Source: an uncultured Armatimonadia bacterium (lineage in GTDB: Bacteria; Armatimonadota; Zipacnadia; UBA1398; CAZMGT01). From it: DNA of 64,000 nucleotides. The notes below the pieces were generated by a model. The model was given only the letters and a program-made list of their open reading frames with translations. It did not search any database and was not told the DNA's origin. Positions 2,898 through 61,596 of this stretch are shown one piece after another (the stretch's first letter is position 1; every line of letters starts with the position of its first letter). The stretch spans positions 78,510-142,509 of the forward strand of contig CAZMGT010000002.1 in the NCBI GenBank assembly GCA_964565895.1, read 5' to 3'. Both the position numbers and the translations under genes were made by a program.

Positions 2898-4340
2898 ATG
2901 CCCAACATCCTGCCCGCTTGTGCCAAGCGAAGCGCAGCGAGCTTTGCCTTCTGCTGCCTCGTGGCGCTTGCCTGTTTGGCGCTGGGGGCCGCCCCGGCGC
3001 GGGCCTGCGACACGCCTGTGTTTCAATATGCTTTGTTCAACTGGGAGCCCGACCCCTACTACGTGTTCTACTTCCACCGCGGCGGGGAGAACCCCCAGGA
3101 CGCCGCGGCGAACAAGATCCTCGAGCAGGCCTCGGCCATGGACTCGTTCGCCAACCTCCTGTTCGATCGCGTAAACGTAGCCAACAAGCAGGAGGTCGCC
3201 CCGGGTGGCCTGCGCAGCAAAATCTGGGAGTACCACCGCTCGGAACGGCTTCCGTTTCACGTGGTAATCAGCCCCCAGGGCGTGGAGATTTACTTCGGCC
3301 GCCTTAGCGCCGCAGGAGCGCGCGCGTTGCTCGCCTCGCCCAAGCGCAAACAGGCCGCGCAACTGCTCTGCGACGGCAAGCAGGGCGTGCTTGTTTTGCT
3401 TAAGTGCTCGGACAAGGCGAAAAACGCCTCGGCGGAAAAAACCGTGCGCGCGGCGATCGCCCGCGCCGGCGACGAGGGGCTAAACGTTGGCTTTCTCTCC
3501 CTTGCCCGCAGCGACGGCTCCGAGAAATGGTTCGTGCGCCAGTTGCTGAACGTGGAGAGCGACCTTGAGGGGTTGGACGAACCCATGGTGTTCGGCATGT
3601 TCGGCAGGGGCCATGTGCTTGAGCCATTTGTGGGCAAGGGGATCACCGTGGAGAACATGCTCGACCTAATTGCGTTTATCAACGGCCCCTGTTCGTGCGA
3701 GATAAAGGCCTACAATCCAGGCGTAGACATCCTGCTTGATTGGGACTGGTCGAGCAAGATCGGCGAGTGGGCCTACGAGGAGCCTACGGACCGCTCCGGG
3801 CTGTTCTATGTGGAGTTCGAGGAGCCCTCGACCGAGGCCCCTGCGGAAAACGTGGCCATGGTTTCCGACGAGCCACAGGCCGCCCCTGCGGCCACGCCTT
3901 CGCCAACCGCGCGGGCCAAAAATGACCTGAGCAAGGCTACGCCGGCCACGCCCAAGGCGGGCAAGAAGACGCCAAAGCCTCGCCGCACAGCCGCGCCCAG
4001 CCCCACCGCCGCCCCAACGGCAACGGTGGCCTCCGCCGAAGCTGCGGGCAAACCCCCGCGCGAGCGCGCCGTTGCCGCGCTGCCCCAAAGCAAGGGCAAG
4101 ACCCCGCCCCAGGCAGGCGGCGCAGGAGGCGAGCCTGCCCCGCGCCAGCCGCAGGCGCAGGTAACCTGGGAGGAGCTGTTTGCCCTCGAGGCCACCCCCG
4201 CGGCGCAGAGCCCCGCGCTTGAGGACGACGACTCGTTCGTCTCCTCGCTTTCGTTAAAGCTCGGCTTGGGGCTGGGGGTGGGCATGGTCCTCGTGGTCAT
4301 CGGTGGCTTTGTACTGCTGCGAAGGTATGGTGAGAGATAA
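2898..4340 (+). CDS. hypothetical secreted protein with an N-terminal signal peptide, a globular Cys-containing domain, a Pro/Ala/Thr-rich linker and a C-terminal transmembrane anchor
   Basis: There is an AAGGAG RBS 8 nt upstream of the ATG. The signal peptide is CLVALACLALGAAPARA. A low-complexity linker (APSPTAAPTATVAS...) is followed by a C-terminal TM helix GVGMVLVVIGGFVLL. The stop lies 3 nt before the next gene. I recognise no family. Confidence 0.5.
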   Translation: MPNILPACAKRSAASFAFCCLVALACLALGAAPARACDTPVFQYALFNWEPDPYYVFYFHRGGENPQDAAANKILEQASAMDSFANLLFDRVNVANKQEVAPGGLRSKIWEYHRSERLPFHVVISPQGVEIYFGRLSAAGARALLASPKRKQAAQLLCDGKQGVLVLLKCSDKAKNASAEKTVRAAIARAGDEGLNVGFLSLARSDGSEKWFVRQLLNVESDLEGLDEPMVFGMFGRGHVLEPFVGKGITVENMLDLIAFINGPCSCEIKAYNPGVDILLDWDWSSKIGEWAYEEPTDRSGLFYVEFEEPSTEAPAENVAMVSDEPQAAPAATPSPTARAKNDLSKATPATPKAGKKTPKPRRTAAPSPTAAPTATVASAEAAGKPPRERAVAALPQSKGKTPPQAGGAGGEPAPRQPQAQVTWEELFALEATPAAQSPALEDDDSFVSSLSLKLGLGLGVGMVLVVIGGFVLLRRYGER

Positions 4341-4343
4341 GCG

Positions 4344-5108
4344 ATGAGAAAGCTTGCCCTGCTCGGTGTTGGCCTGGCGCTGTTGGTTTGCGGCTGTCCA
4401 AAGCAGGTGGAGCAGCGCGAAGTGAAAGAGGAGCAAAAGCTAACCGTGCTCTGCGGGGGTTCGTTCCGCCCGCCCATGGAGCGGCTGGCCAGCCTGTTCG
4501 AGGAGGAAACGGGCGTCGCCGTCGAGCTCTCGTTCGGCCAGAGCGAGGACCTTTTGCCCATCGTGAAAATCGGCAAAGAGGGCGACATTTTCGTCACCCA
4601 CGACCCCTACATGGACTATACCAAGGAAGCGAACGCGCTGCTCGACGCCGTGCAGGTGGGCTATGTCGCGCCGGTGCTTGTCGTGCGCAAGGGCAACCCC
4701 GCGGGCGTGAAGTCCATCGAGGACTTGGCCAAGCCCGGGGTAAAAGTCGCCCTGCCCAACCCGGAGTACTCCACCTGCGGCGAAATGCTCTTCCGCTTGC
4801 TTGAGAAAAAGGGCATTAAAGAAGCTGTTTTAAAGAACGCCGAAGGGGCGATCTTCCGCAGCCACTCCCAGACGGGCAACGCGCTAAAGCTGGGCACGCG
4901 CGACGCCGGGGTAATGTGGAACGGCGTGGCCCACACGTTCCGCGACGCTCTGGAGATTATCCCCACGCCTTATGAGTACGATGAGACGATTCGCGTGTGG
5001 GTCATGGGGCTGAGCTATTCCTCGAACACCGAGCTGGTGAAGCAGTTCCTCGACTTCGCCCGCGAAAAGGGCACGGAGGTTTTCGCGGAGTTCGGCTACG
5101 TCAAGTAG
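4344..5108 (+). CDS. modA: ModA-family periplasmic molybdate/tungstate-binding lipoprotein (paralog 1)
   Basis: A lipobox LLVCGC sits after the signal peptide. The core TVLCGGSFRPPMERLASLFEEETGVAVELSFGQSED..DIFVTHDPYMDY and the C-terminus KQFLDFAREKGTEVFAEFGYVK match the ModA pattern (..FKRYGF..K). Confidence 0.7.
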   Translation: MRKLALLGVGLALLVCGCPKQVEQREVKEEQKLTVLCGGSFRPPMERLASLFEEETGVAVELSFGQSEDLLPIVKIGKEGDIFVTHDPYMDYTKEANALLDAVQVGYVAPVLVVRKGNPAGVKSIEDLAKPGVKVALPNPEYSTCGEMLFRLLEKKGIKEAVLKNAEGAIFRSHSQTGNALKLGTRDAGVMWNGVAHTFRDALEIIPTPYEYDETIRVWVMGLSYSSNTELVKQFLDFAREKGTEVFAEFGYVK

Positions 5109-5137: not shown

Positions 5138-5914
5138 ATGCGTTTTTCGGGCGTCGGGCGCTGGGCAATAGTTTTCGCCGCCCTACTCGCTTGCGGCTGT
5201 GCCAAACAGGAGAAGGAAAAGCCCCTGCTTTATCTTTACTGCGGCGCGGGAATCCGCCCGCCCGTGTCCGAGATGGTCGCGGAGTTTGAGCGCAAGCAGG
5301 GGGTTAAGATGGAGTGCGACTACGCGGGCTCGGAGGTTCTGCTCAGCCGAATAAAGCTCTCCCGCCGCGGCGACTTATACATGCCCGGCGACGCGCGCTA
5401 TGTGGAGCAGGCGCGGCGCGAGGGCCTTATCCTTTCCTCCGTAGACGCCTGTTACTGGATCCCCGTGATCGTTGTGCAAAAGGGCAACCCAAAGGGCATC
5501 GAGAGCGTCGCCGACCTAACCAAGCCCGGCCTGCGCGTGGGCCTAGGCGACCCCACGGCCTGCGCCATCGGCAAAATTAGCGCAAGGGTGCTTAAGAAAA
5601 ACAACATCGCCGAGGAGGACATCGAGCCGAACATCGTCTTCCGCTCGCTTACCGTAAACGAGCTCGGCGTGCACATCAAGACGGGGAAGATCGACGCAGC
5701 CATCGTGTGGGACGGTATCGCCAACCTCTACGCAGACGTGGGCGACGTGGTGCGCATTCCCCCGGAGCAAAACGTGGTGTCCACCGTGCCGCTTGCCGTG
5801 CTCAAGTTCTCCCAGCACCCCGAGCTGGCGAAAAAATTTCAGCAGTTCGTTACCTCCCAGCGCGGGAAGGAGATCTTCGCTAAGTACGGCTACACCACGG
5901 AGCGCCCGGAGTAG
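5138..5914 (+). CDS. ModA-family periplasmic binding lipoprotein (paralog 2)
   Basis: A lipobox LLACGC is present. The layout parallels paralog 1 (VVQKGNPKGIESVADLTKPGLRVGL; C-terminus KKFQQFVTSQRGKEIFAKYGYT). It starts 30 nt after paralog 1. Confidence 0.7.
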   Translation: MRFSGVGRWAIVFAALLACGCAKQEKEKPLLYLYCGAGIRPPVSEMVAEFERKQGVKMECDYAGSEVLLSRIKLSRRGDLYMPGDARYVEQARREGLILSSVDACYWIPVIVVQKGNPKGIESVADLTKPGLRVGLGDPTACAIGKISARVLKKNNIAEEDIEPNIVFRSLTVNELGVHIKTGKIDAAIVWDGIANLYADVGDVVRIPPEQNVVSTVPLAVLKFSQHPELAKKFQQFVTSQRGKEIFAKYGYTTERPE

Positions 5915-7838: not shown

Positions 7839-8682
7839 ATGAGCGAGCAGAGAATTAGAATTTTTTCCGCCAAGGCTTGCGCCGCGCCGATCGAGGCCGC
7901 CGCGGAGCGGTTTCGCGAGGAGACGGGAATCGCCGTAGACCTCCTCGTCTGCCGCAGGCACTGCCACACACCCTACGCGGGCGAGGCCGAGGAAGCCGAT
8001 GTTGTCGGCACGCCGCATTTTCTCACCGAGGTCGCGGAGATCGCCGGCCTGGACCTCGTCGTCGCTGGGGCGAGCTATCTCGCCGACGACGGCGAGATCA
8101 TGGGCATTTTCGACCGCTCCGCGCGCCTGTGCCTAGGCTATCGGCGCTCTGCCCTGCTCGTTCAACCGGGCAACCCGAAGGGCATTCGTGCGCTGGCCGA
8201 CCTGGAGCGGGCGGATGTTACAGTGAGTGTTTCGGTCATCGACTGCTTAAAGGGCGCCTATGAGGACATCATTTGCGCAACGCACCGCAGCGAGCTAATT
8301 CGCCCCCAAATTAAGCTCTGGGCAAACGGCTGCGTGGCCCTTGTCGAGTCGGTGGCCCAGGGGCGCGTGGATGTGGGCTCTGCAGGAGGCGGGCGTCACG
8401 AGCCTGATGACGGTGGCCCAGGGGCGCGTGGATGTGGGGGTCGGCTGGTCGGCGTTCGAACATCTTGCCTCCGGGCGTGTCCAGATAATCGAGCTCAACG
8501 GCCCTGAGGCGATCGAGCGCGAGACAACGATTTCTCTGTGCAAAAACTCAGCTAACGGCGCGGCCGCGGAGCGGTTCTTGCAGTTTATCGCCGAGGGCGG
8601 GGCGGATGAGTTTCTCGCCCGCTACGGCTGGCTGCTCCCCGAGGCCCGCCGAAAGATCGTTCGGGAGGCGAAAGCAACATGA
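7839..8682 (+). pseudogene. third ModA-like binding-protein paralog with no signal peptide or lipobox, disrupted by a +1 frameshift caused by a 61-bp partial duplication
   Basis: The N-terminal part (7839-8380, frame 0) reads ..VQPGNPKGIRALADLERADVTVSV..LVESVAQGRVDVG and then runs into nonsense. The same motif restarts in frame +1 (8341-8682) as ..VAQGRVDVGVGWSAFEHLASG...ERFLQFIAEGGADEFLARYGW, which is a ModA C-terminus. The 28-mer cggtggcccaggggcgcgtggatgtggg occurs at 8351 and again at 8412. Confidence 0.6.
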
Positions 8683-27522: not shown

Positions 27523-28020
27523 GTGAGCACAAAGGGCACAGCGGAGAAAGTATTTCGCGAACAGGCGCTTGACGTGTTCCGCCGCTACCTTGCCGAGCGC
27601 GGGCTGAAGTGGACGAAGCAGCGCCAAGCCATCGCCCAAGCGTTCCTCGCCGCGGAACACCACGTCAGCGCCAAAGAGCTGCACCGCACCGTGCGCAACA
27701 CCCTCGGCGGATCGATCGGCCTGGCCACCGTCTACCGCACGCTGCACCTGCTCTGCGAATGCAACGTTGCCCGCGAGCGCGACTTCGGCAGCGGCCGCGT
27801 GCTCTTCGAGCACATGCTCGGCCACGCCAGCCACGACCACATGATCTGCACCACGTGCGGCGAGATCGCCGAGTTTGAAGCCCCCGAGCTCCAGCGGCTG
27901 CTCGCCGACGTCGCCGCGCGCGCCTCGTTCGATCTTGCCAGCCACCAGCTCGTTCTCTTCGGCACCTGCCGCCGCTGCGCACAGCGCTTCGAAAACCACG
28001 GGAGGGCGAAACGCAAATGA
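27523..28020 (+). CDS. fur: Fur-family metal-responsive transcriptional regulator (Fur/Zur/PerR)
   Basis: A winged-helix domain is followed by the metal site HASHDHMICTTCGEI..FGTCRRC (HxxHDH and 2xCxxC). The start is probably the GTG at 27523. The subtype is not resolved. Confidence 0.6.
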   Translation: MSTKGTAEKVFREQALDVFRRYLAERGLKWTKQRQAIAQAFLAAEHHVSAKELHRTVRNTLGGSIGLATVYRTLHLLCECNVARERDFGSGRVLFEHMLGHASHDHMICTTCGEIAEFEAPELQRLLADVAARASFDLASHQLVLFGTCRRCAQRFENHGRAKRK

Positions 28021-28670
28021 CCGAGGGCTCGACCAGCGTTGACCCGCGCAAGCTCTGGGACGAAGTGGTGTTTCGTGTAAAACAGGGCGATGTGCGCCTT
28101 CAGTTGTGGGAGGCAATGGAGCACTGCATCCCCATTGTCGTTGAGGAGAACGTGCTCGTCCTCGGCATCCCCACCCACGAATACCACCGCGCGGGACAGC
28201 TCACCCAGCACGATGTGCGCGAGGAGATCCTCCGCCACTTGCGTGAGATTACCGGGCGCGAGTTGGACTACACCGTGTTCGAGGGCGAAACTCAGGAGCA
28301 GTGGGAGGCATATAAGGAGCGCCGGCGGATGGCCGAGGAGGCCGCCGCCCTGCAGCGCAAGGTCGCCCTAGAGACCGCGGCCAAGCGCAAAACGTGGGAC
28401 GCCCTGGGCCAGGAGCTGCAGGTAAAGTGGGGCCAGCTTCAGGACCGCTCCCTCCCCTGGGTCCTCGCGCGATACCTGCTTGAGGCCTTCCCCCTCGTCG
28501 CCGAGCTCGAGCGCGAGGCCGTTAATAAACCAGAGGACCAGCACCCCATGGAGCGCCGAAACCTCGCCCGCATCCTCTCCCGCCTGGCTACGCACACCAA
28601 CCTGCCGGTAACCCTCGTCGCGCTGGAATACATGCGCTATAAGGAGCGCGAGGGCCTGCCCTCGCTATAG
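28017..28670 (+). CDS. hypothetical cytoplasmic protein translationally coupled to fur
   Basis: Its ATG overlaps the fur TGA (ATGA). The protein is 217 aa, charged and helical, with no recognisable motif. Confidence 0.45.
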   Translation: MTEGSTSVDPRKLWDEVVFRVKQGDVRLQLWEAMEHCIPIVVEENVLVLGIPTHEYHRAGQLTQHDVREEILRHLREITGRELDYTVFEGETQEQWEAYKERRRMAEEAAALQRKVALETAAKRKTWDALGQELQVKWGQLQDRSLPWVLARYLLEAFPLVAELEREAVNKPEDQHPMERRNLARILSRLATHTNLPVTLVALEYMRYKEREGLPSL

Positions 28671-45363: not shown

Positions 45364-45872
45364 TCTCCCGCTCCCTTCCCCCGGGCCTCGGCCAGGCGTT
45401 TGTTTAGCTGGGCAATGTGCCCCAGCTCCTCCTTAATTATCGCCTCAATGCGCTCCCGTCCGAGCCTCTGGGGAACGAGCTCGCGCATTTGCACATAGAA
45501 CACGATGGAGTCTTTTTCCAGCTCGATCGCCGTGGCCAGGATCTCCTCCAGAGGCTCGCCACCACGGAGAAGCTCCGCGGGGTCCTTGCGAATGTCGAAG
45601 ACATAGCCGTCGGCCATTGCGTGCAGGTAAAGCCCGGCTTCGCCCGTGGGGTCGAACACTGTGGCCCGGCGCTCGGCGGGGGAGAGCTCGCTGCGCATTT
45701 GGGCAAACGTGCGCTCGTGGTCCTCCTCCATTTTCGCCAGGTCAAGCAGGGCCTGGCGCGCTGGTCCCGAGGCGTTCTCCGCGGCCAGGTGGTAAAACCG
45801 CGCTCCATTGCGCTCGATGCGCTCGGCCATTTGCAAAATCTCGTCCGCGTTAAACGTAATGCTCATGCTCAT
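45360..45872 (-). CDS. ferritin-like diiron protein, rubrerythrin family (no rubredoxin domain)
   Basis: Two ExxH motifs (MEEDHERTF, EELGHIAQL) sit in a helical ferritin-like fold. A GGAGGAGG RBS is present. Confidence 0.55.
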   Translation of the reverse strand: MSMSITFNADEILQMAERIERNGARFYHLAAENASGPARQALLDLAKMEEDHERTFAQMRSELSPAERRATVFDPTGEAGLYLHAMADGYVFDIRKDPAELLRGGEPLEEILATAIELEKDSIVFYVQMRELVPQRLGRERIEAIIKEELGHIAQLNKRLAEARGKGAGE

Positions 45873-46013
45873 GCCTCCTCCGCGGGCGCTCGTTGCCTGG
45901 TTTCGCCGGCGGGTGCCTGGCGGGAGCCTCGGCGGCGAGCTATGAATATCAATAGCGCGCGTTTGCCAAAAGTTCCCCGCGCAGGCCGCGCTCGGGCGGC
46001 ATGCCCTGCTTGG

Positions 46014-47396
46014 CTACCAGCCGTAGCGCTCAGGGCCCCAGTCGCGCAGCTCGAGCTGTTGCTTGGCCAAAACGAGCTTTCCGCTGGGCAGATCCTCGTA
46101 GAGAATCACGCCCGGCCCGACGCAGCTATAGCAGCCGACCTTTACCCCAGGCATGAGAATCGCGTTTACGCCCGTGCGCGAATGGTCGCCGAGATACGAG
46201 GCGTTTGCCCCCACGCGAGGGATCTCCGGCCGGCCCTTTACCCGGTGCACGGTGGAGCCATCATCAAAGCGCAGCGTCCCGCATACCGTCGCCGCGCCGA
46301 TGTCCACCGCGCGCCCGAGCACCCCGCACACCTCGCAGTAGTGATACAGATACACCCGCTCGAACGTTACCCCGGCAAACTCCGCGCAGTGCGCGACAAT
46401 GCCAAACTCGCCCAGCGACGACCACGCGCCAACCTTGCAGTAATCCTCAACCCGGCAGTTTCGCCCGACGACCACCTGCCCCCCGAGGATCGCTCCGTTG
46501 CTAATCGTCGTGTTCTCGCCGACGATCGCGTCTCCCCCAATGACTACCCGCTTGCCGATGTGCACGTTCTCGCCGAGGACGAGCCTGCCCGAGATCTCCG
46601 CGCTGTCGCTAATCGTGCACGACCGGCCAATGCGCTCCTCGGGGTGCAGGGCGAGCAGGTGGGCGATCGCCGCGCGGTTGGCGGAGAGGATATGCCACGG
46701 CTTGTCAATGTCCACGCACGGCCCGCGGGCCTCCACCGCGGCGACGGCCACGCCGTCCTCGATCATCATCTGCAGCGACTGGGCGAGCTCCGCCTCGCGC
46801 GGGGGCATGCCGCCCACGGGGACGGCGGTCATTATCCCCGGGTTTTCGCGCAGGTGCTTAACGTGCGCCGGGCGCAGGGCAAACACCCCGCCCAGGCGGT
46901 GCGTTCCGCCGCGGGGGTGGCCCTCCACTCCGCGCACAACGCCGTCGCCAACGCTCGCGCAAATCCAGTCCTGCGGGCGCTCCCCCGCGAGAGGGACAAC
47001 GAGCGCCGCGGCCTCCGCCTCGCCCCGCTCCACTGCCTCGCGCACGGCGCGCAGGTCCTCGCGCGTCACGAACACATCGCCATAGACGACAAGCGCAAGG
47101 TCGAAATCCTCGTCCTCAAGCGCGGCAAGGGCGGCGTCCGCCGTTCCCGTGGGCTGCTCTTGGGTAATGTAGCGCACGCGCTCGCTCCACTGCCGCAGGG
47201 CATAGCGCACGCTCGGCGCGTTGTGCCCGACAACCACGTGAAGGCCCTCTGCGCCGCTGGCGAGCAGCTCCTCGGCGAGGTGGGCGATAAGGGGCTTTCC
47301 CGCAATGGGCACGGCGCATTTTTGCCGCAGCTCGCCAAACGGCCAGGCGCGGCTGCCCTTTCCCGCGGCAAGCACAACAACGCGCACCTGCGCCAT
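46014..47396 (-). CDS. GlmU-like bifunctional nucleotidyltransferase plus left-handed beta-helix acyltransferase
   Basis: VVVLAAGKGSRAWPFGELRQKCAVPIAGKPLI is an NTP-transferase motif. A long hexapeptide-repeat C-terminus follows. The start is at 47396 after a GGGAGGGG SD. Whether this is the true glmU is unresolved. Confidence 0.55.
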   Translation of the reverse strand: MAQVRVVVLAAGKGSRAWPFGELRQKCAVPIAGKPLIAHLAEELLASGAEGLHVVVGHNAPSVRYALRQWSERVRYITQEQPTGTADAALAALEDEDFDLALVVYGDVFVTREDLRAVREAVERGEAEAAALVVPLAGERPQDWICASVGDGVVRGVEGHPRGGTHRLGGVFALRPAHVKHLRENPGIMTAVPVGGMPPREAELAQSLQMMIEDGVAVAAVEARGPCVDIDKPWHILSANRAAIAHLLALHPEERIGRSCTISDSAEISGRLVLGENVHIGKRVVIGGDAIVGENTTISNGAILGGQVVVGRNCRVEDYCKVGAWSSLGEFGIVAHCAEFAGVTFERVYLYHYCEVCGVLGRAVDIGAATVCGTLRFDDGSTVHRVKGRPEIPRVGANASYLGDHSRTGVNAILMPGVKVGCYSCVGPGVILYEDLPSGKLVLAKQQLELRDWGPERYGW

Positions 47397-47435
47397 CTCC
47401 CTCGCCCCTCCCGCGTAAGCCACACCGCCCCGCTG

Positions 47436-48737
47436 CTAGCCCAGCTCCATCGCCGGCTCGCGCGGCGAAATTCCGTCCGGGTCGTTGGCCCGCGCGCCCT
47501 TTGGCGCGGGAACGGGGCCGGCGAGCAGCGGGTCGTCCGTCTCGTTCATCCACCGCTCAAGCCGCGCGCGCATTTCCTCGAGCACCTGCTTGTGCGCGGG
47601 GTCGGCGGCGAGGTTGTTCGTCTCCACGGGGTCGAAGATAAGGTCGTATAGCTGCTCCTCGGCGACGGGCCGCTCGCGCCAGCCGTGGGCCAGCCACAAG
47701 TCCTTGCTCGGGCTGTCGTCGCAGTTGGGAAGCACCGGCCGCGTCCGCCCGTCGAACCGCCGAATGTACTTCCACCGCCTCGTGCGCACGGCGCGCATCG
47801 GCTCATACGCTGCGTGATAGGTTACCTCGGCGAAAATCTCCTCGCGAATCTCCTCCGCCTCCCCGCGAATGAGGGGCATGAGCGACTTCCCCTGCAGCCA
47901 GGGCGGGGGATCGACCTCCAACAGCTCGCAAATCGTCGGATACAGATCGATTTGCGAGACGAGGGCGTCGCACACCCGGCCCCCCTCAAACCCTCCCGGC
48001 CCGCGCATAATGAGCATGACCCCGATCCCGTGGTCCGTCAGGTTGCACTTCATCCAGGGGAAGGCAATGCCGTGGTCTGTGGTGCAGATAACGAGGGTGT
48101 TTTCGGCAAGCCCCGCTTCCTCGAGCGCTTCAAGCACGATGCCAAACCCCTCGTCGAGCACCCGCGCGCTCGCCTTATAGCAGGCCATGTCGTAGCGCGT
48201 CTCCGGGGCGTCGGGAATGGGCAGCGGCGGCTGGCAATAGCGCGGGTCCTCCGCGGGCCCCGGCTCCTCGTAAACGCGGTGCGTGTCGTTAAACCCTGCG
48301 GAGAGGAAAAACGGCTGCTCCGGCTTTCCCCGCAGCCACTGCGCGACCACTTGCGCGCGCTCCGGCGCCCGCGGGGGAACGTCGGTAATCGTCTCGTCGT
48401 AGCCGATTACCGAGGGGTCGCGCGCGATGTGCTGGGTGCCGATGAGCGTCGAGCGATAGCCTGCGCGGCGCAGGGTGTGCACGATGTGCTTGCCGTAGTC
48501 GTTTAGCGAAAATCCGCGGTGCGCCAGGCCAATCATCCCGCAGCAGTGCGGATATTGGCCGGTAAGCAACGCGGCGCGGCTGGGAGAGCACGTCGGCCCC
48601 CCGCAAAACGCCTGGCGAAAGAGCACCCCTTGCTCCGCCAGCCGCTGAATGTTCGGCGTGGCGATGGCAAAGCCATAGGGTTGCACATAGCGCCCGCTGT
48701 CGTGCGAGTGGAGGTAGAGAATGTTCGGTCGTTCCAT
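47436..48737 (-). CDS. formylglycine-dependent sulfatase (arylsulfatase family) with no signal peptide
   Basis: CSPSRAALLTG carries the CxPxR sulfatase signature. The N-terminus MERPNILYLHSHD has no hydrophobic leader. A GAGGTG SD is present. Confidence 0.7.
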   Translation of the reverse strand: MERPNILYLHSHDSGRYVQPYGFAIATPNIQRLAEQGVLFRQAFCGGPTCSPSRAALLTGQYPHCCGMIGLAHRGFSLNDYGKHIVHTLRRAGYRSTLIGTQHIARDPSVIGYDETITDVPPRAPERAQVVAQWLRGKPEQPFFLSAGFNDTHRVYEEPGPAEDPRYCQPPLPIPDAPETRYDMACYKASARVLDEGFGIVLEALEEAGLAENTLVICTTDHGIAFPWMKCNLTDHGIGVMLIMRGPGGFEGGRVCDALVSQIDLYPTICELLEVDPPPWLQGKSLMPLIRGEAEEIREEIFAEVTYHAAYEPMRAVRTRRWKYIRRFDGRTRPVLPNCDDSPSKDLWLAHGWRERPVAEEQLYDLIFDPVETNNLAADPAHKQVLEEMRARLERWMNETDDPLLAGPVPAPKGARANDPDGISPREPAMELG

Positions 48738-56171: not shown

Positions 56172-57236
56172 GTGTGTGCCATCGTCGAAATCGACGGCGC
56201 GATAGGGGAGGGCGGGGGGCAGGTCCTGCGCACGGCGCTTGCCCTAAGCGCCTTGCTGCGCCGGCCGCTGCATATCGTTAACATCCGCCGCGGGCGCGAC
56301 AAGCCCGGCCTCCGCCCGCAGCACCTGGCCGGCGCGCGCGCCGTGGCCGAAATTACCGGCGGCCGGCTCGAGGGCGACGCCGTGGGCTCGCTCGAGCTCC
56401 GCCTTTTTCCCGGAAAACCACGCCCCGGCCGCTATATCTTCGACGTCGCCGAACAACGGCGCAGCGCCGGGGCGATCACCCTCCTCGCGCAGACCATTAT
56501 GCCGATCATCGCCCTCACCCCTGGCCCCTGGCGCGTGACGCTCAAGGGCGGGACACACGTTCCGTTCAGCCCGCCGTTCGACTACTTCGACGATGTCTTT
56601 TTGCCCGCGCTCGAGGCGATGGGCGTCTACGTTGCCGCGCGCCTGGACTCCGCCGGTTTTTACCCCCACGGCGGCGGCGTAGCGCACATCGAAAGCGAGG
56701 GCGCCTCTGCGCTTGCCCCGTTGTCCCTGGCTACGCGCGGGCCGTGCGAGCGCATCGAGCTGCGCGCGGTGATCGCCAACCTCAGGGAGGACATCGCCCA
56801 TCGCGAGCTGCGCGCGGCGCGCGAGGAGCTGGCCAAAGCGGGCTACCACGGCGTGCACCACTCGATATCGAGGCTGCGCTCGCCCGCGCCGGGGACGGTG
56901 CTTTTCGTGCTTGCCGAGGCCGCGCACAGCGTGGCCGGGTTTACTTCGCTCGGCCGCCGGGGTAAACGCGCGGAGACCGTGGGCATCGAGGCCGCGCGCG
57001 AGGCCGTCGCCTACCTCGACAGCGAAGCCGCGGTCGACCGCCATCTTGCCGACCAGCTCGTGCTCTATATGGCGCTTGCCCGCGGGCGCAGCGTGCTCAC
57101 CACGGAGCAAGTAACCAGCCACTTGCTGACGAATATCCAGGTCGTCAGCCGGTTTCTCGATGTCCAGTTTGAGGTCGAGGGCGAACTTGGCGCGCCGGGC
57201 ACAATTGCCGTCGAAGGGGTTGGCTTTTCCAGCTAG
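56172..57236 (+). CDS. rtcA: RNA 3'-terminal phosphate cyclase
   Basis: IDGAIGEGGGQVLRTALALSALL is the RtcA N-terminal signature. The typical length of about 350 aa fits. A GTG start is inferred. No rtcB or rtcR is adjacent. Confidence 0.65.
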   Translation: MCAIVEIDGAIGEGGGQVLRTALALSALLRRPLHIVNIRRGRDKPGLRPQHLAGARAVAEITGGRLEGDAVGSLELRLFPGKPRPGRYIFDVAEQRRSAGAITLLAQTIMPIIALTPGPWRVTLKGGTHVPFSPPFDYFDDVFLPALEAMGVYVAARLDSAGFYPHGGGVAHIESEGASALAPLSLATRGPCERIELRAVIANLREDIAHRELRAAREELAKAGYHGVHHSISRLRSPAPGTVLFVLAEAAHSVAGFTSLGRRGKRAETVGIEAAREAVAYLDSEAAVDRHLADQLVLYMALARGRSVLTTEQVTSHLLTNIQVVSRFLDVQFEVEGELGAPGTIAVEGVGFSS

Positions 57237-57260
57237 CCCCCACGCGGGAGGAGCGAACGT

Positions 57261-58100
57261 TTGATGGAATGCCAACTGGGTTGCATGACCATTCCCTACC
57301 GCCACTTTACGCTCCAGGAGGCGTTTGCGGGGATCGCTGCCGCGGGCTTTAAGTATGTCTGCCCCGGGCCGCACCATTTCGGCCGCGGGCCGGACGAGCC
57401 GGAGATCTCCGCGGAGAAGGTTGACGAGCTGAACAAGCTCGCCGAGGAGCACGGGCTAAAGATCGTCATGATCTTCGGCTGCCGCGGGCCGCTGAAGTCG
57501 CTGCACGATGTGCAGACGTATAAGCAGGACGTGGACGTTTGCGCAGCGCTGGGCGCGCCCTATCTGCTGACCATGGGCCCCTGGGCCTATGCTGAGGGAA
57601 TTATCCGCCGCAAACCGGACGAAGAGTGGAACGCCGACGTCGAGGCCTATTACCGCTGGATGAAGCCCGTCGCCCAGTATGCCGGGGAGAAGGGGGTAAC
57701 GATCCTCATCAAGCCCCACGCCAACGTCTGCGCCCACGCCAGCTTGTGCGTGCAAACCATTCAGGCCATTGGCTCGCCGCACGTGCGCATTTGCTACGAT
57801 GGGGGAAACGTCCACTTCTACGAGGGCATTGACCCTCACATCGATCTCTCCCTCTGCGCCGACTATGTCCGTGCGCTGGTGGTTAAGAATCATCGCGGCG
57901 GGCGCGGTGTGCGCGACTTTCCCCCGCCCGCCGAAGGCGATGTAGACCACGCCCGGCTGTTGCGCATCCTCAGCGAACACAACTTCTCCGGCCCCGTCGT
58001 CGTGGAGCGCCTGGGCGACTTGGAGGAGCTCGCGGCGATTAACGAGGAGGCGAAAAAAGCGTTTCGCTATCTTACCGAGATCCTCGGCTCCCTAAGCTAG
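57261..58100 (+). CDS. sugar phosphate isomerase/epimerase (xylose-isomerase-like TIM barrel)
   Basis: The AP-endonuclease-2 / xylose-isomerase-like TIM-barrel layout is present. It is a second paralog in this window. Confidence 0.55.
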   Translation: MMECQLGCMTIPYRHFTLQEAFAGIAAAGFKYVCPGPHHFGRGPDEPEISAEKVDELNKLAEEHGLKIVMIFGCRGPLKSLHDVQTYKQDVDVCAALGAPYLLTMGPWAYAEGIIRRKPDEEWNADVEAYYRWMKPVAQYAGEKGVTILIKPHANVCAHASLCVQTIQAIGSPHVRICYDGGNVHFYEGIDPHIDLSLCADYVRALVVKNHRGGRGVRDFPPPAEGDVDHARLLRILSEHNFSGPVVVERLGDLEELAAINEEAKKAFRYLTEILGSLS

Positions 58101-59295: not shown

Positions 59296-59982
59296 CTAGC
59301 CTTCCAGGCGATAGCCCACGGCGTGCACCGTTTGGATGATCTTCGGGTTTGAGGGGTCCTCCTCGATCTTCTTGCGCAGCCGGGCGATGTGCATATCCAA
59401 CGCGCGGCCCTCGAGCTCCGAGGTCCCCCAAATGTGCTCCATTAGCTCCTCGCGCGTGACCACCCGCCCCGCGTTGCGCACGAGAAACGTTAGGATCTCA
59501 AACTCCGTCCGCGTAAGCTCAATCTCGCGCGCGCCGACATATGCCGTGTGCCGGCCGAGGTCTATCTTAACCTTTCCCGCCTCGAGCGTCGTCTGGCCCA
59601 TCGTCGGCGCGGCATACTCCTTCGCTCGGCGGAGCAGGGCGCGCACGCGCGTGCGAAACTCCGCCGGGCGCACGGGCTTGCCCAGGTAGTCGTCCGCGCC
59701 CAGCTCCATGCCCACGACGAGGTCCGTCTCCTCGTCGCGCCAGGTAACCATTATGATCGGCACGTGCGACTCGCGCCGGAGCACACGGCAGACCTCCAGC
59801 CCGTCCATCCCGGGCATGACCACGTCGAGGATCACCAAGTCGGGGTTCTCCCGCCGGGCAAGCTCCAGCCCTTGCTCCCCGTCGGAAGCCTTGAGCACGT
59901 CGTAGCCTTCGTGTTTAAGCAGCGTCTCATATAGCTCCAGCGCTTCTGGATCGTCGTCAATGACCAAAATCCGCGCGCTCAA
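59296..59982 (-). CDS. OmpR/PhoB-family response regulator (REC plus winged-helix)
   Basis: The REC domain is ILVIDDDPEAL..DLVILDVVMPGMDG. The C-terminal Trans_reg_C is VGYRLEG. Confidence 0.75.
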   Translation of the reverse strand: MSARILVIDDDPEALELYETLLKHEGYDVLKASDGEQGLELARRENPDLVILDVVMPGMDGLEVCRVLRRESHVPIIMVTWRDEETDLVVGMELGADDYLGKPVRPAEFRTRVRALLRRAKEYAAPTMGQTTLEAGKVKIDLGRHTAYVGAREIELTRTEFEILTFLVRNAGRVVTREELMEHIWGTSELEGRALDMHIARLRKKIEEDPSNPKIIQTVHAVGYRLEG

Positions 59983-60038
59983 CGTTTACATTCCCTTCCC
60001 AGGCGAACTCTCCCGCCGCCTACGCCCCCGAGCCCGAA

Positions 60039-60710
60039 CTACGGGCGGTAGGGATAGCCCGACCTCGGCCGCGACCGCTCCGTGGCGCGCCACAGCGCCT
60101 CGTTGTCTTCCTCGGCCATCTCCTCGCGGCGGCGCAGGGGCTTGTAGTCCACGGCGTTTGCGCGCACCGTCTTGCGAAACTCCGCCTCGTTGGCGAGCAG
60201 CAGATGCAGCGTGCCCTCGGCGCGCGCCTCGGCGACTTGCCGCCGCCACTCGTGGGCGAGGACCTCCTCGCGCGAATAAGGCTTGGGAGTGGGCGCGAGC
60301 GGGGCGACTTCCTCCGCGGGAGCGGCCTCCTCCGCCGCTTCCTCCGGGGCGGCCTCCTCGGGCTCCGCCTTTTCCGCGGGTGCTTGCTCAGGCGCCGGGG
60401 TCGCCTCCCCCTTCGGGGTCACCTCAATGGGCGCAGCCCCCGCGCCCTCCTCGAGTGCAGCACCCTCGGCTTCCTCGAGCATCTTCTCCTCTTCCGCGGT
60501 CTGCCGGGCCTTGCGCGCGGCAACCTTTTTCGCCTTCCCCGGCTGCTTGCCCAACTCGCGCGCAATGCGCGGAATATTCTGCCCCACTACAGGCAGCAGC
60601 GCAGGCTCGGGCCCCGCCGCGCGCGCCAAAATCTCCCCGCCCCAGACAAATGCGGCGAGCGCCCCCACGACGCACGTCGCTATCCCTAGCGCAAATATCG
60701 CCCTGCTCAC
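60039..60710 (-). CDS. hypothetical N-terminally membrane-anchored protein with an Ala/Glu/Pro-rich acidic low-complexity region
   Basis: The TM anchor is IFALGIATCVVGALAAFVW. Then comes EEAEGAALEEGAGAAPIEVTPKGEATPAPEQAPAEKAEPEEAAPEEAAEEAAPAEE. No known domain is present. Confidence 0.4.
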   Translation of the reverse strand: MSRAIFALGIATCVVGALAAFVWGGEILARAAGPEPALLPVVGQNIPRIARELGKQPGKAKKVAARKARQTAEEEKMLEEAEGAALEEGAGAAPIEVTPKGEATPAPEQAPAEKAEPEEAAPEEAAEEAAPAEEVAPLAPTPKPYSREEVLAHEWRRQVAEARAEGTLHLLLANEAEFRKTVRANAVDYKPLRRREEMAEEDNEALWRATERSRPRSGYPYRP

Positions 60711-60774
60711 TGTCCCTTCCCCTCGCTTCCACTGTACGCCCTCGCCGCACGACTAGCAAGCGGCCTAAGCTGCG

Positions 60775-61596
60775 CTACCACGTCAGCTCCATGCCGTCGA
60801 ACGCTACTTCTACCCCCTGCGGCTCAAGGCGCTCTACGAGCTCGTCGTGCAGCAAAAGCCCGTTGTGCGAAAAATGCGTGGCCACAAACCGCGTGCCCTC
60901 GTCCACGCAGCCGATCTCCGCGAGCTTGGCCTTTACAGACAAAACGTCGGGAATTCCAAGATGGTTTTCCCCACACTGGCGCTTGCCGCAAGTGCAGTCC
61001 ATGACAACAACGCTCAGCCGCTTACCCGCGAGGAACTCCCATGTCTCCTCGGGATACCACCCCGTGTCGTTGCCCTGGAGCAGGTAGCGCCCGTTGGCGC
61101 AAAGGAGGAAGTTCAGCGCGACCTCTTCCTCTGCGGCGTGGCTGGCGACGATCGGCGTGGCCTCCAGGCCGTCGGGCAGGGAAACGGGGCGAAACGGCTC
61201 TAGCTCGACAAACTGCACGCTCAGAAGCTCCAGCTCCTCCGCGCCCTGGCGCAGCTTGCGCCCCACGGCGGCGTTGCCGTAAATACGCAGGGGCGCGGGG
61301 GGCACACCGGCCCAGAATCCCTTGCGCCTCATGTTTAGCTCGTGCGCGCAAAAGTGGTCCTGGTGGCTGTGCGTTATCAGCAGGTCGGTAATGTTCGCCA
61401 GGCAAATGCCAAACCGTACCGACTGCACGTAGATATCCGGCCCAAAGTCAATGAGCACGCGGCGGCCCACGAGATAGGCCGCCCGCAAGCGCAGGTTCTT
61501 GCCCCCCAGCTCGCGCGCCTTGCGGCACACTGCGCAGTCGCAAAAAATTCCCGGCCAGCCCTCTGCGGCCGCCGTGCCAAGGATCTTAAACCTCAT
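60775..61596 (-). CDS. MBL-fold metallo-hydrolase (PhnP-like)
   Basis: THSHQDH is the beta-lactamase-fold HxHxDH motif. Confidence 0.6.
   Translation of the reverse strand: MRFKILGTAAAEGWPGIFCDCAVCRKARELGGKNLRLRAAYLVGRRVLIDFGPDIYVQSVRFGICLANITDLLITHSHQDHFCAHELNMRRKGFWAGVPPAPLRIYGNAAVGRKLRQGAEELELLSVQFVELEPFRPVSLPDGLEATPIVASHAAEEEVALNFLLCANGRYLLQGNDTGWYPEETWEFLAGKRLSVVVMDCTCGKRQCGENHLGIPDVLSVKAKLAEIGCVDEGTRFVATHFSHNGLLLHDELVERLEPQGVEVAFDGMELTW

Follow-up and report, generated by a model that had tools for sequence, protein, structure and literature searches.

A spacer-sized insertion within a 28-bp target duplication disrupts a ModA-like gene of an uncultivated bacterium: a candidate off-target CRISPR integration

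The findings presented here concern a conserved gene for a small ModA-like binding protein that has lost its reading frame. The gene carries 61 additional bp, laid out as X-Y-X, in which X is a 28-bp stretch of the gene itself and Y is a 33-bp sequence lying between the two copies of X. The explanation that we put forward, with even confidence, is that X-Y-X arose in nature when a spacer was integrated off target (a "neo-CRISPR" event), inactivating this SBP_bac_11 gene, a proposal made from the geometry and sequence of the insertion.

The 61-bp insertion and the gene that it interrupts

We analysed a 64-kb stretch of DNA (hereafter, the window), in which the perfect 28-mer CGGTGGCCCAGGGGCGCGTGGATGTGGG is present twice at a spacing of 61 bp (Table 1). 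The two copies were identical at 28 out of 28 positions and could be extended on neither side. No comparable pair appeared in 100 shuffles, even when three mismatches were permitted, and this was the only closely spaced direct repeat of at least 22 bp within the window. The first-pass annotation had correctly reported the repeat and its 61-bp offset, although its coordinates (8351 and 8412) were one base too high. Its description of a 61-bp partial duplication has to be corrected, since only 28 bp are duplicated and the insertion is not a 61-bp unit present twice. The remaining 33 bp, CTCTGCAGGAGGCGGGCGTCACGAGCCTGATGA, are unrelated to the flanks or to the rest of the window. Y was identical to the 33 bp preceding X1 at 10 out of 33 positions and to the 33 bp following X2 at 9 out of 33, which is the chance level, as 26% of random 33-mers from the window scored as well against the flanks. 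A decayed tandem duplication was discarded on these grounds. A longer decayed array was also ruled out, because nothing X-like was found at 61 or 122 bp on either side.

As 61 is not a multiple of three, the gene is frameshifted. Frame 0 from position 7839 reads ...LVESVAQGRVDVG followed by 43 junk codons and a stop at 8505-8507, and through X1 it spells ...NGCVALVESVAQGRVDVG before entering the out-of-frame stretch. The +1 frame from X2 reads (T)VAQGRVDVGVGWSAFEHL... and continues to 8682. Removal of the 61 bp produced an ORF of 783 nt, the product of which (260 aa) matched the SBP_bac_11 family in the Pfam search (E=7e-19, residues 6-244), with a score of 68.9 bits for PF13531 against a gathering cutoff of 25 and coverage of profile positions 1-226 out of 227. 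This repaired protein presented neither an N-terminal signal nor a lipobox, and there was no room for a signal peptide. Two upstream paralogues (4344-5108 and 5138-5914; 254 and 258 aa) had lipoprotein-type N-termini and were ~22-24% identical to it. The frameshift in a cytoplasmic ModA-like gene, with frame 0 stopping at 8507 and the +1 frame running to 8682, and the recovery of a 260-aa protein close in size to its paralogues had both been proposed in the first-pass annotation and were confirmed. The 222-aa product was also called on the ENA contig k141_289516 (NCBI record P0002), and the JGI gene call was a 103-aa fragment ORF (P0025) starting at the ATG at 8371. In the repaired frame, the stop codon of the SBP-like gene and the start codon of the FtsX-like gene behind it overlap (ATGA, 8679-8682), implying a translational coupling that the frameshift would break.

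Table 1. Positions of the insertion, its parts and the affected reading frames in the window
Feature	Position	Strand	Remarks
X1, first 28-bp copy of the duplicated target (pseudo-repeat)	8350..8377	+	Frame 0 encodes (S)VAQGRVDVG
IR2-like GCGTGGAT, X1 positions 16-23	8365..8372	+	7/8 vs GCGGGGAT; again in X2, 8426-8433
Y, spacer-like 33-bp insert	8378..8410	.	No counterpart in window or orthologue
X2, second 28-bp copy	8411..8438	+	Read in +1 frame, codon register same as X1
Disrupted gene, signal-peptide-less SBP_bac_11 (ModA-like); 260 aa without the 61 bp	7839..8682	+	Pfam and gap-free orthologue alignment
Truncated ORF as it stands, 222 aa (179 native + 43 out-of-frame residues)	7839..8507	+	
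Untranslated or orphaned C-terminal 90 codons	8411..8682	+	+1 frame

Comparison with orthologues, which had been suggested at first pass, found the gene uninterrupted in 11 out of 11 (P0001 and P0003-P0012; 248-258 aa, 46-72% identity); those with names came from Armatimonadota MAGs, so that the host probably belongs to this phylum. The repaired protein aligned to them gap-free through the invariant GC-A--E...D---GW-AF-HL block, which is among the most conserved of the family. The best orthologue, P0001 (GCA_030601885.1), showed the same operon order as the window, consisting of an unknown protein (434 aa in the P0001 locus), two SBPs, a permease, an ABC ATPase, the SBP_bac_11 protein, an FtsX-like permease and a second ABC ATPase. 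At the DNA level, this P0001 locus (L004) was collinear with the window and 70% identical across the empty site. Uninterrupted orthologues, gap-free alignment, synteny and a collinear empty site indicate that the 61 bp were inserted into a gene that is conserved and otherwise intact. Since the repeats are perfect and no second lesion was present in the gene, the event must be recent, which upholds the recent inactivation that the first-pass annotation had listed among its options.

The disrupted gene belongs to a family of small, signal-peptide-less SBP_bac_11 proteins (~250 aa), labelled 'AcfC' or 'molybdate SBP' in their sources, in which the cysteines at positions 14, 38, 42 (C-x-R-H-C motif), 136 and 165 are invariant. 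In both loci examined (the window and L004 5138-12577), the operon includes two lipoprotein SBPs, a TOBE-domain ABC ATPase and an FtsX/MacB-like permease, and the cytoplasmic cysteine-rich binding protein is placed between two ABC systems. The first gene of the operon (window 2898-4340, 480 aa; L004 5138-6442, 434 aa) is conserved in position and had no Pfam match.

Likeness to a type I-E acquisition unit

During spacer acquisition, Cas1-Cas2 performs two strand transfers separated by the length of one repeat, which is then duplicated by gap repair. In type I-E systems, the repeat is 28 bp long (Goren et al. 2016, PMC5039180) and a single acquisition adds 61 bp to the array (PMC11788318). An E. 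coli K-12 array used as control (CRISPR-I, L007) showed a period of 61 bp. The X-Y-X lengths match those of a type I-E unit throughout, with a 28-bp duplication, a 33-bp insert and a total of 61 bp, a correspondence that the first-pass annotation had missed.

The second cut of the I-E integrase is measured from two anchors, IR2 (GCGGG), which ends 8 nt before the junction, and IR1 (CCCCGCG), which ends 16 nt before it, and mutation of either IR lowers adaptation in E. coli ~100-fold (PMC5039180). In X, the GCGGG-like part of GCGTGGAT ends 8 nt before the X/Y junction, in the same register as in the I-E repeat. Positions 16-20 of X read GCGTG, which agrees with IR2 at 4 out of 5 bases and keeps the critical second base C, while the match to the IR1 anchor was poor (GCCCAGG against CCCCGCG, 4/7). 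When IR2 was extended by the next three bases of the E. coli repeat (GAT), GCGTGGAT agreed with GCGGGGAT at 7 out of 8 bases. To be read with these frequencies is that the reference was the E. coli repeat, which comes from a distant phylum and may differ from that of the host, and that the resemblance was spotted before it was formalised: among all 127,946 28-mers of the window, which served as null, an 8-mer match as good as that of X was found in 0.10% per strand, or 0.20% per site with both orientations counted, both anchor thresholds were reached by 0.8% per strand, and the summed anchor score was reached by 3.8% of sites in either orientation, giving P = 0.008-0.04 for the two published anchors. 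The resemblance of X to the anchors, partly post-hoc and with the E. coli repeat as a stand-in, would lend moderate support to integration by Cas1-Cas2.

X itself does not behave as a known CRISPR repeat, and this identity was rejected: it matched none of the Rfam CRISPR-DR families and contained no palindrome or Cas6e-type hairpin. Such a result would be anticipated if X were a chance target, but does not count as positive support. Because X lacks a Cas6e-type hairpin, the X-Y-X unit is probably not processed into crRNA and would represent a mutational scar rather than a working array. A canonical CRISPR array at this position was also dismissed, as there are only two copies of X, with no Rfam CRISPR-DR match or hairpin, and Pfam scans of ~50 ORFs in the 64-kb window detected housekeeping, transport and glycoside-hydrolase genes only and no cas genes. 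No CRISPR array was found elsewhere in the window either. An AT-rich, leader-like patch upstream of X1 was not unusual (P ~0.18) and was not used as evidence. Our literature search on the CRISPR types of Armatimonadota returned nothing useful.

Apart from this, four ORFs of the window (45417-48506, 56244-57980, 59960-61391 and 27665-28051) had no Pfam match. Some of them showed a third-position G+C of 0.42-0.72, compared to ~0.8 elsewhere, and the four could represent acquired genes or else spurious ORF calls.

We then considered the origin of Y. No second occurrence was detected in the window, even with three mismatches, and there were no exact matches of at least 11 nt on either strand of the 64 kb or of at least 12 nt in the orthologous locus. 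These results excluded nearby DNA of either strand as the template of Y, whether through a quasi-palindrome or a local template switch. Given that Y shows no relation to the flanks, the window or the orthologous locus, it was brought in from elsewhere. Its G+C content is 67%, compared to 65% for the host, and its distribution over codon-like positions (5/11, 10/11 and 7/11) suggests that Y derives from coding sequence in a genome rich in G+C. No protospacer was found in viral contigs when exact Y, wobble-masked Y and three 20-mers were used as queries, no source in genome and metagenome contigs by a wobble-masked scan, and none in phages and plasmids by blastn. Natural spacers mostly remain without a match. 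The sole match to wobble-masked Y in the genome collection, L005 7834-7866 from a Lachnospiraceae MAG (JAKSRW010000008.1), encodes TLQEAGVTRLII within a large surface-type protein and agrees at 3 out of the 11 masked positions; we judged it to be a chance or motif-level similarity and not the source of Y. As no protospacer was found, no PAM could be read. With X oriented like the repeat, the first base of Y is C, and that of its reverse complement is T. The leader-proximal, PAM-derived G that is typical of E. coli AAG-PAM systems is missing, a feature that is not universal among I-E systems.

On these data, the following sequence of events can be proposed. A Cas1-Cas2 complex of type I-E geometry, encoded elsewhere in the genome, would have put the 33-bp prespacer Y into the SBP_bac_11 gene rather than into a CRISPR array. 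Two staggered strand transfers 28 bp apart, between 8349 and 8350 and between 8377 and 8378 of the ancestral sequence, would have opened the target, with GCGTGGAT presumably helping to place the second cut. Gap repair would then have copied X to both sides of Y, resulting in a one-spacer 'neo-CRISPR' unit of 61 bp. We infer here both the integrase as the agent and the presence of an I-E-type system in the host. Off-target integration by Cas1-Cas2 has precedents. In E. coli, it takes place in vivo at partly repeat-like chromosomal sites, according to the accounts of Nivala 2018 in PMC7054753 and bioRxiv 10.1101/148544, and it has been obtained in vitro with Pyrococcus (PMC6698737). Natural cases in Yersinia pestis and Sulfolobus islandicus are presented as putative and circumstantial in the accounts available of that work (Nivala, Shipman & Church 2018, Nat Microbiol 3:310, via PMC7054753, PMC6698737 and bioRxiv 10.1101/148544). 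Our confidence in integration by Cas1-Cas2 was kept at an even level because the 64 kb contained no cas genes or array, X had no repeat-family match or hairpin, no source of Y was found and the PAM-derived G was missing. That X-Y-X is a single event also counts against it.

Other explanations for X-Y-X

A replication or repair accident that involved no integrase is a possible, though less probable, origin. By template switching (MMBIR/FoSTeS-like) or end joining, 28 bp would have been re-copied and 33 bp acquired from a distant genomic template, and such repair is known to generate duplications with templated filler at the junction. The lack of cas genes in the 64-kb window fits this account, as does the nature of Y, which is coding-like and close to the host in G+C (67% vs 65%), as expected for a copy from the host chromosome. 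However, a local template is lacking, as the search for matches of at least 11 nt on both strands of the 64 kb showed, and no microhomology was visible at the junctions in the available sequence (flanks T/CGG... and A/CGG...). In addition, a repair accident requires two coincidences, namely the 28/33/61 geometry and the in-register IR2-like motif (P ~0.002-0.04).

An artefact, in which the true genome carries an intact 260-aa gene, had been raised in the first-pass annotation and now appears very unlikely. X-Y-X was identical base for base in the window, in the ENA contig ERZ27248349 k141_289516, which was built by MEGAHIT with k=141, and in the JGI contig 3300021472 Ga0190363_1018001. The JGI sample, "GB-1867", is listed among geothermal and hydrothermal sediment metagenomes (bioRxiv 10.1101/2022.04.06.487207). 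The ENA contig differed from the window only at 4116 (G>A) and 4202 (G>T), and the JGI contig only at 11497 (T>C) and 11503 (G>A), both at the very end of the contig. As each contig differs from the window at two positions, the assemblies are separate ones that sample a single near-clonal population. Moreover, X-Y-X measures 89 bp, which is shorter than one read and than one 141-mer, so that the 28-bp repeat could not have created it as a graph loop, and Y and both junctions must be present in the reads. It is true that all the data are short-read metagenome assemblies judged from contigs alone and that some reads may be common to the three assemblies. The intact 260-aa sequence was nevertheless absent from a collection of 15 billion proteins by exact look-up, and neither this look-up nor the homology search revealed a near-identical intact allele. 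The homology search with the repaired protein would be weak on its own in this respect, because it missed P0025, although this 103-aa C-terminal fragment is itself a representative in the collection searched and shows 100% identity over ~90 residues.

X-Y-X might also be what is left of a larger element, either a prophage or island with 28-bp att cores or an unknown transposon that duplicates a long target, after the loss of everything except 33 bp. Direct repeats do flank an insert inside a gene, as this origin predicts, but the internal deletion would have had to spare both 28-bp cores exactly. The ends of Y have no inverted repeats, no integrase or transposase was found nearby, and no transposon family is known to produce 28-bp target duplications. 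We consider such a remnant highly improbable.

A simple slipped-strand tandem duplication, possibly making the gene a contingency locus, is more doubtful still and is refuted by the sequence. A perfect repeat at a short distance that gives a frameshift would be in line with slippage, but this process requires two full 61-bp copies, and 33 of the 61 bp occur just once, their identity to the flanks being at the chance level. Furthermore, there is one repeat pair and no repeat tract. The slippage-prone contingency site considered in the first-pass annotation therefore does not hold as an origin, since slippage between the 28-bp copies could delete the insert but cannot create it. For the same reason X-Y-X is not a two-way switch, as slippage can remove the insert and not regenerate it. 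RecA-independent slippage between the copies could still restore the gene precisely, making the knock-out revertible.

Finally, we find it barely credible that the full protein is still made by a programmed bypass of the type known from T4 gene 60, with ribosomes hopping over 61 nt between X1 and X2. Take-off in X1 and landing in X2 could be matched, since frame 0 of the former and the +1 frame of the latter have the same codons, but no stop codon follows the take-off site, where frame 0 continues for 43 codons, the RNA is not unusually structured (z = -0.2) and no orthologue contains the gap.

Consequences and comparison with known systems

The frameshift is predicted to truncate the SBP_bac_11 protein after residue 179 out of 260 and to uncouple translation of the downstream FtsX/ABC genes. 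Expression of this FtsX/ABC pair may also be reduced, because ribosomes now stop 170 nt earlier than the intact stop that overlaps the FtsX-like start.

If X-Y-X did originate by off-target integration, it would be a natural mis-fire of a CRISPR integrase, a type I-E Cas1-Cas2 acting in trans in an uncultivated hydrothermal-sediment bacterium, and the insertion allele would be the sole one observed in its population. X-Y-X would count among very few natural off-target integrations and would apparently be the first one located inside a conserved gene and inactivating it. In nature, CRISPR adaptation would then have a genuine price in mutations, and ordinary coding sequence could seed new repeat-spacer units. 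The locus bears on the natural rate of off-target integration, on its cost and on array seeding, and it provides a clean, datable example, in which the repeats are perfect, the gene bears no further lesion and relatives show the empty site. The X target can be compared with the known ruler anchors, and the locus would offer a concrete substrate on which a non-model integrase could be studied for its specificity. A simple genome-wide screen also suggests itself, for intragenic target duplications and inserts whose lengths equal those of the host repeat and spacer. If integration by Cas1-Cas2 were wrong, X-Y-X would merely mark a recent pseudogene produced by an unusual duplication-plus-filler repair, of little wider interest.

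X-Y-X shares features with several known systems. With translational bypassing (phage T4 gene 60, with its 50-nt gap, and the 'byp' elements of Magnusiomyces mitochondria), it shares a gap of tens of nt in an ORF and matching codons on both sides, but it lacks the take-off stop, the special structure and the conservation. With slipped-strand tandem duplications, it has in common a short perfect direct repeat, a frameshift and a possible reversion by deletion; in contrast to them, 33 out of the 61 inserted bp were not copied from adjacent sequence.

The canonical type I-E unit, represented by E. coli K-12 CRISPR-I, presents the same 61-bp period, made up of a 28-bp repeat and a 33-bp spacer that includes the PAM-derived base, and the IR2-like GCG-GGAT motif occupies the same position in the repeat. 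Unlike a canonical array, X-Y-X contains two repeat copies and has no palindromic hairpin, leader or neighbouring cas genes, and its 'repeat' is ordinary coding sequence that is conserved in orthologues. The off-target units described by Nivala also consist of a lone spacer-sized insert within a perfect duplication of a non-CRISPR target, the duplication being equal to the repeat length, and their targets are likewise only partly repeat-like, chromosomal and away from the cas genes. Those units were produced by over-expressed E. coli Cas1-Cas2, whereas X-Y-X is natural and apparently fixed in an environmental population, and it lies inside a conserved gene that it inactivates.
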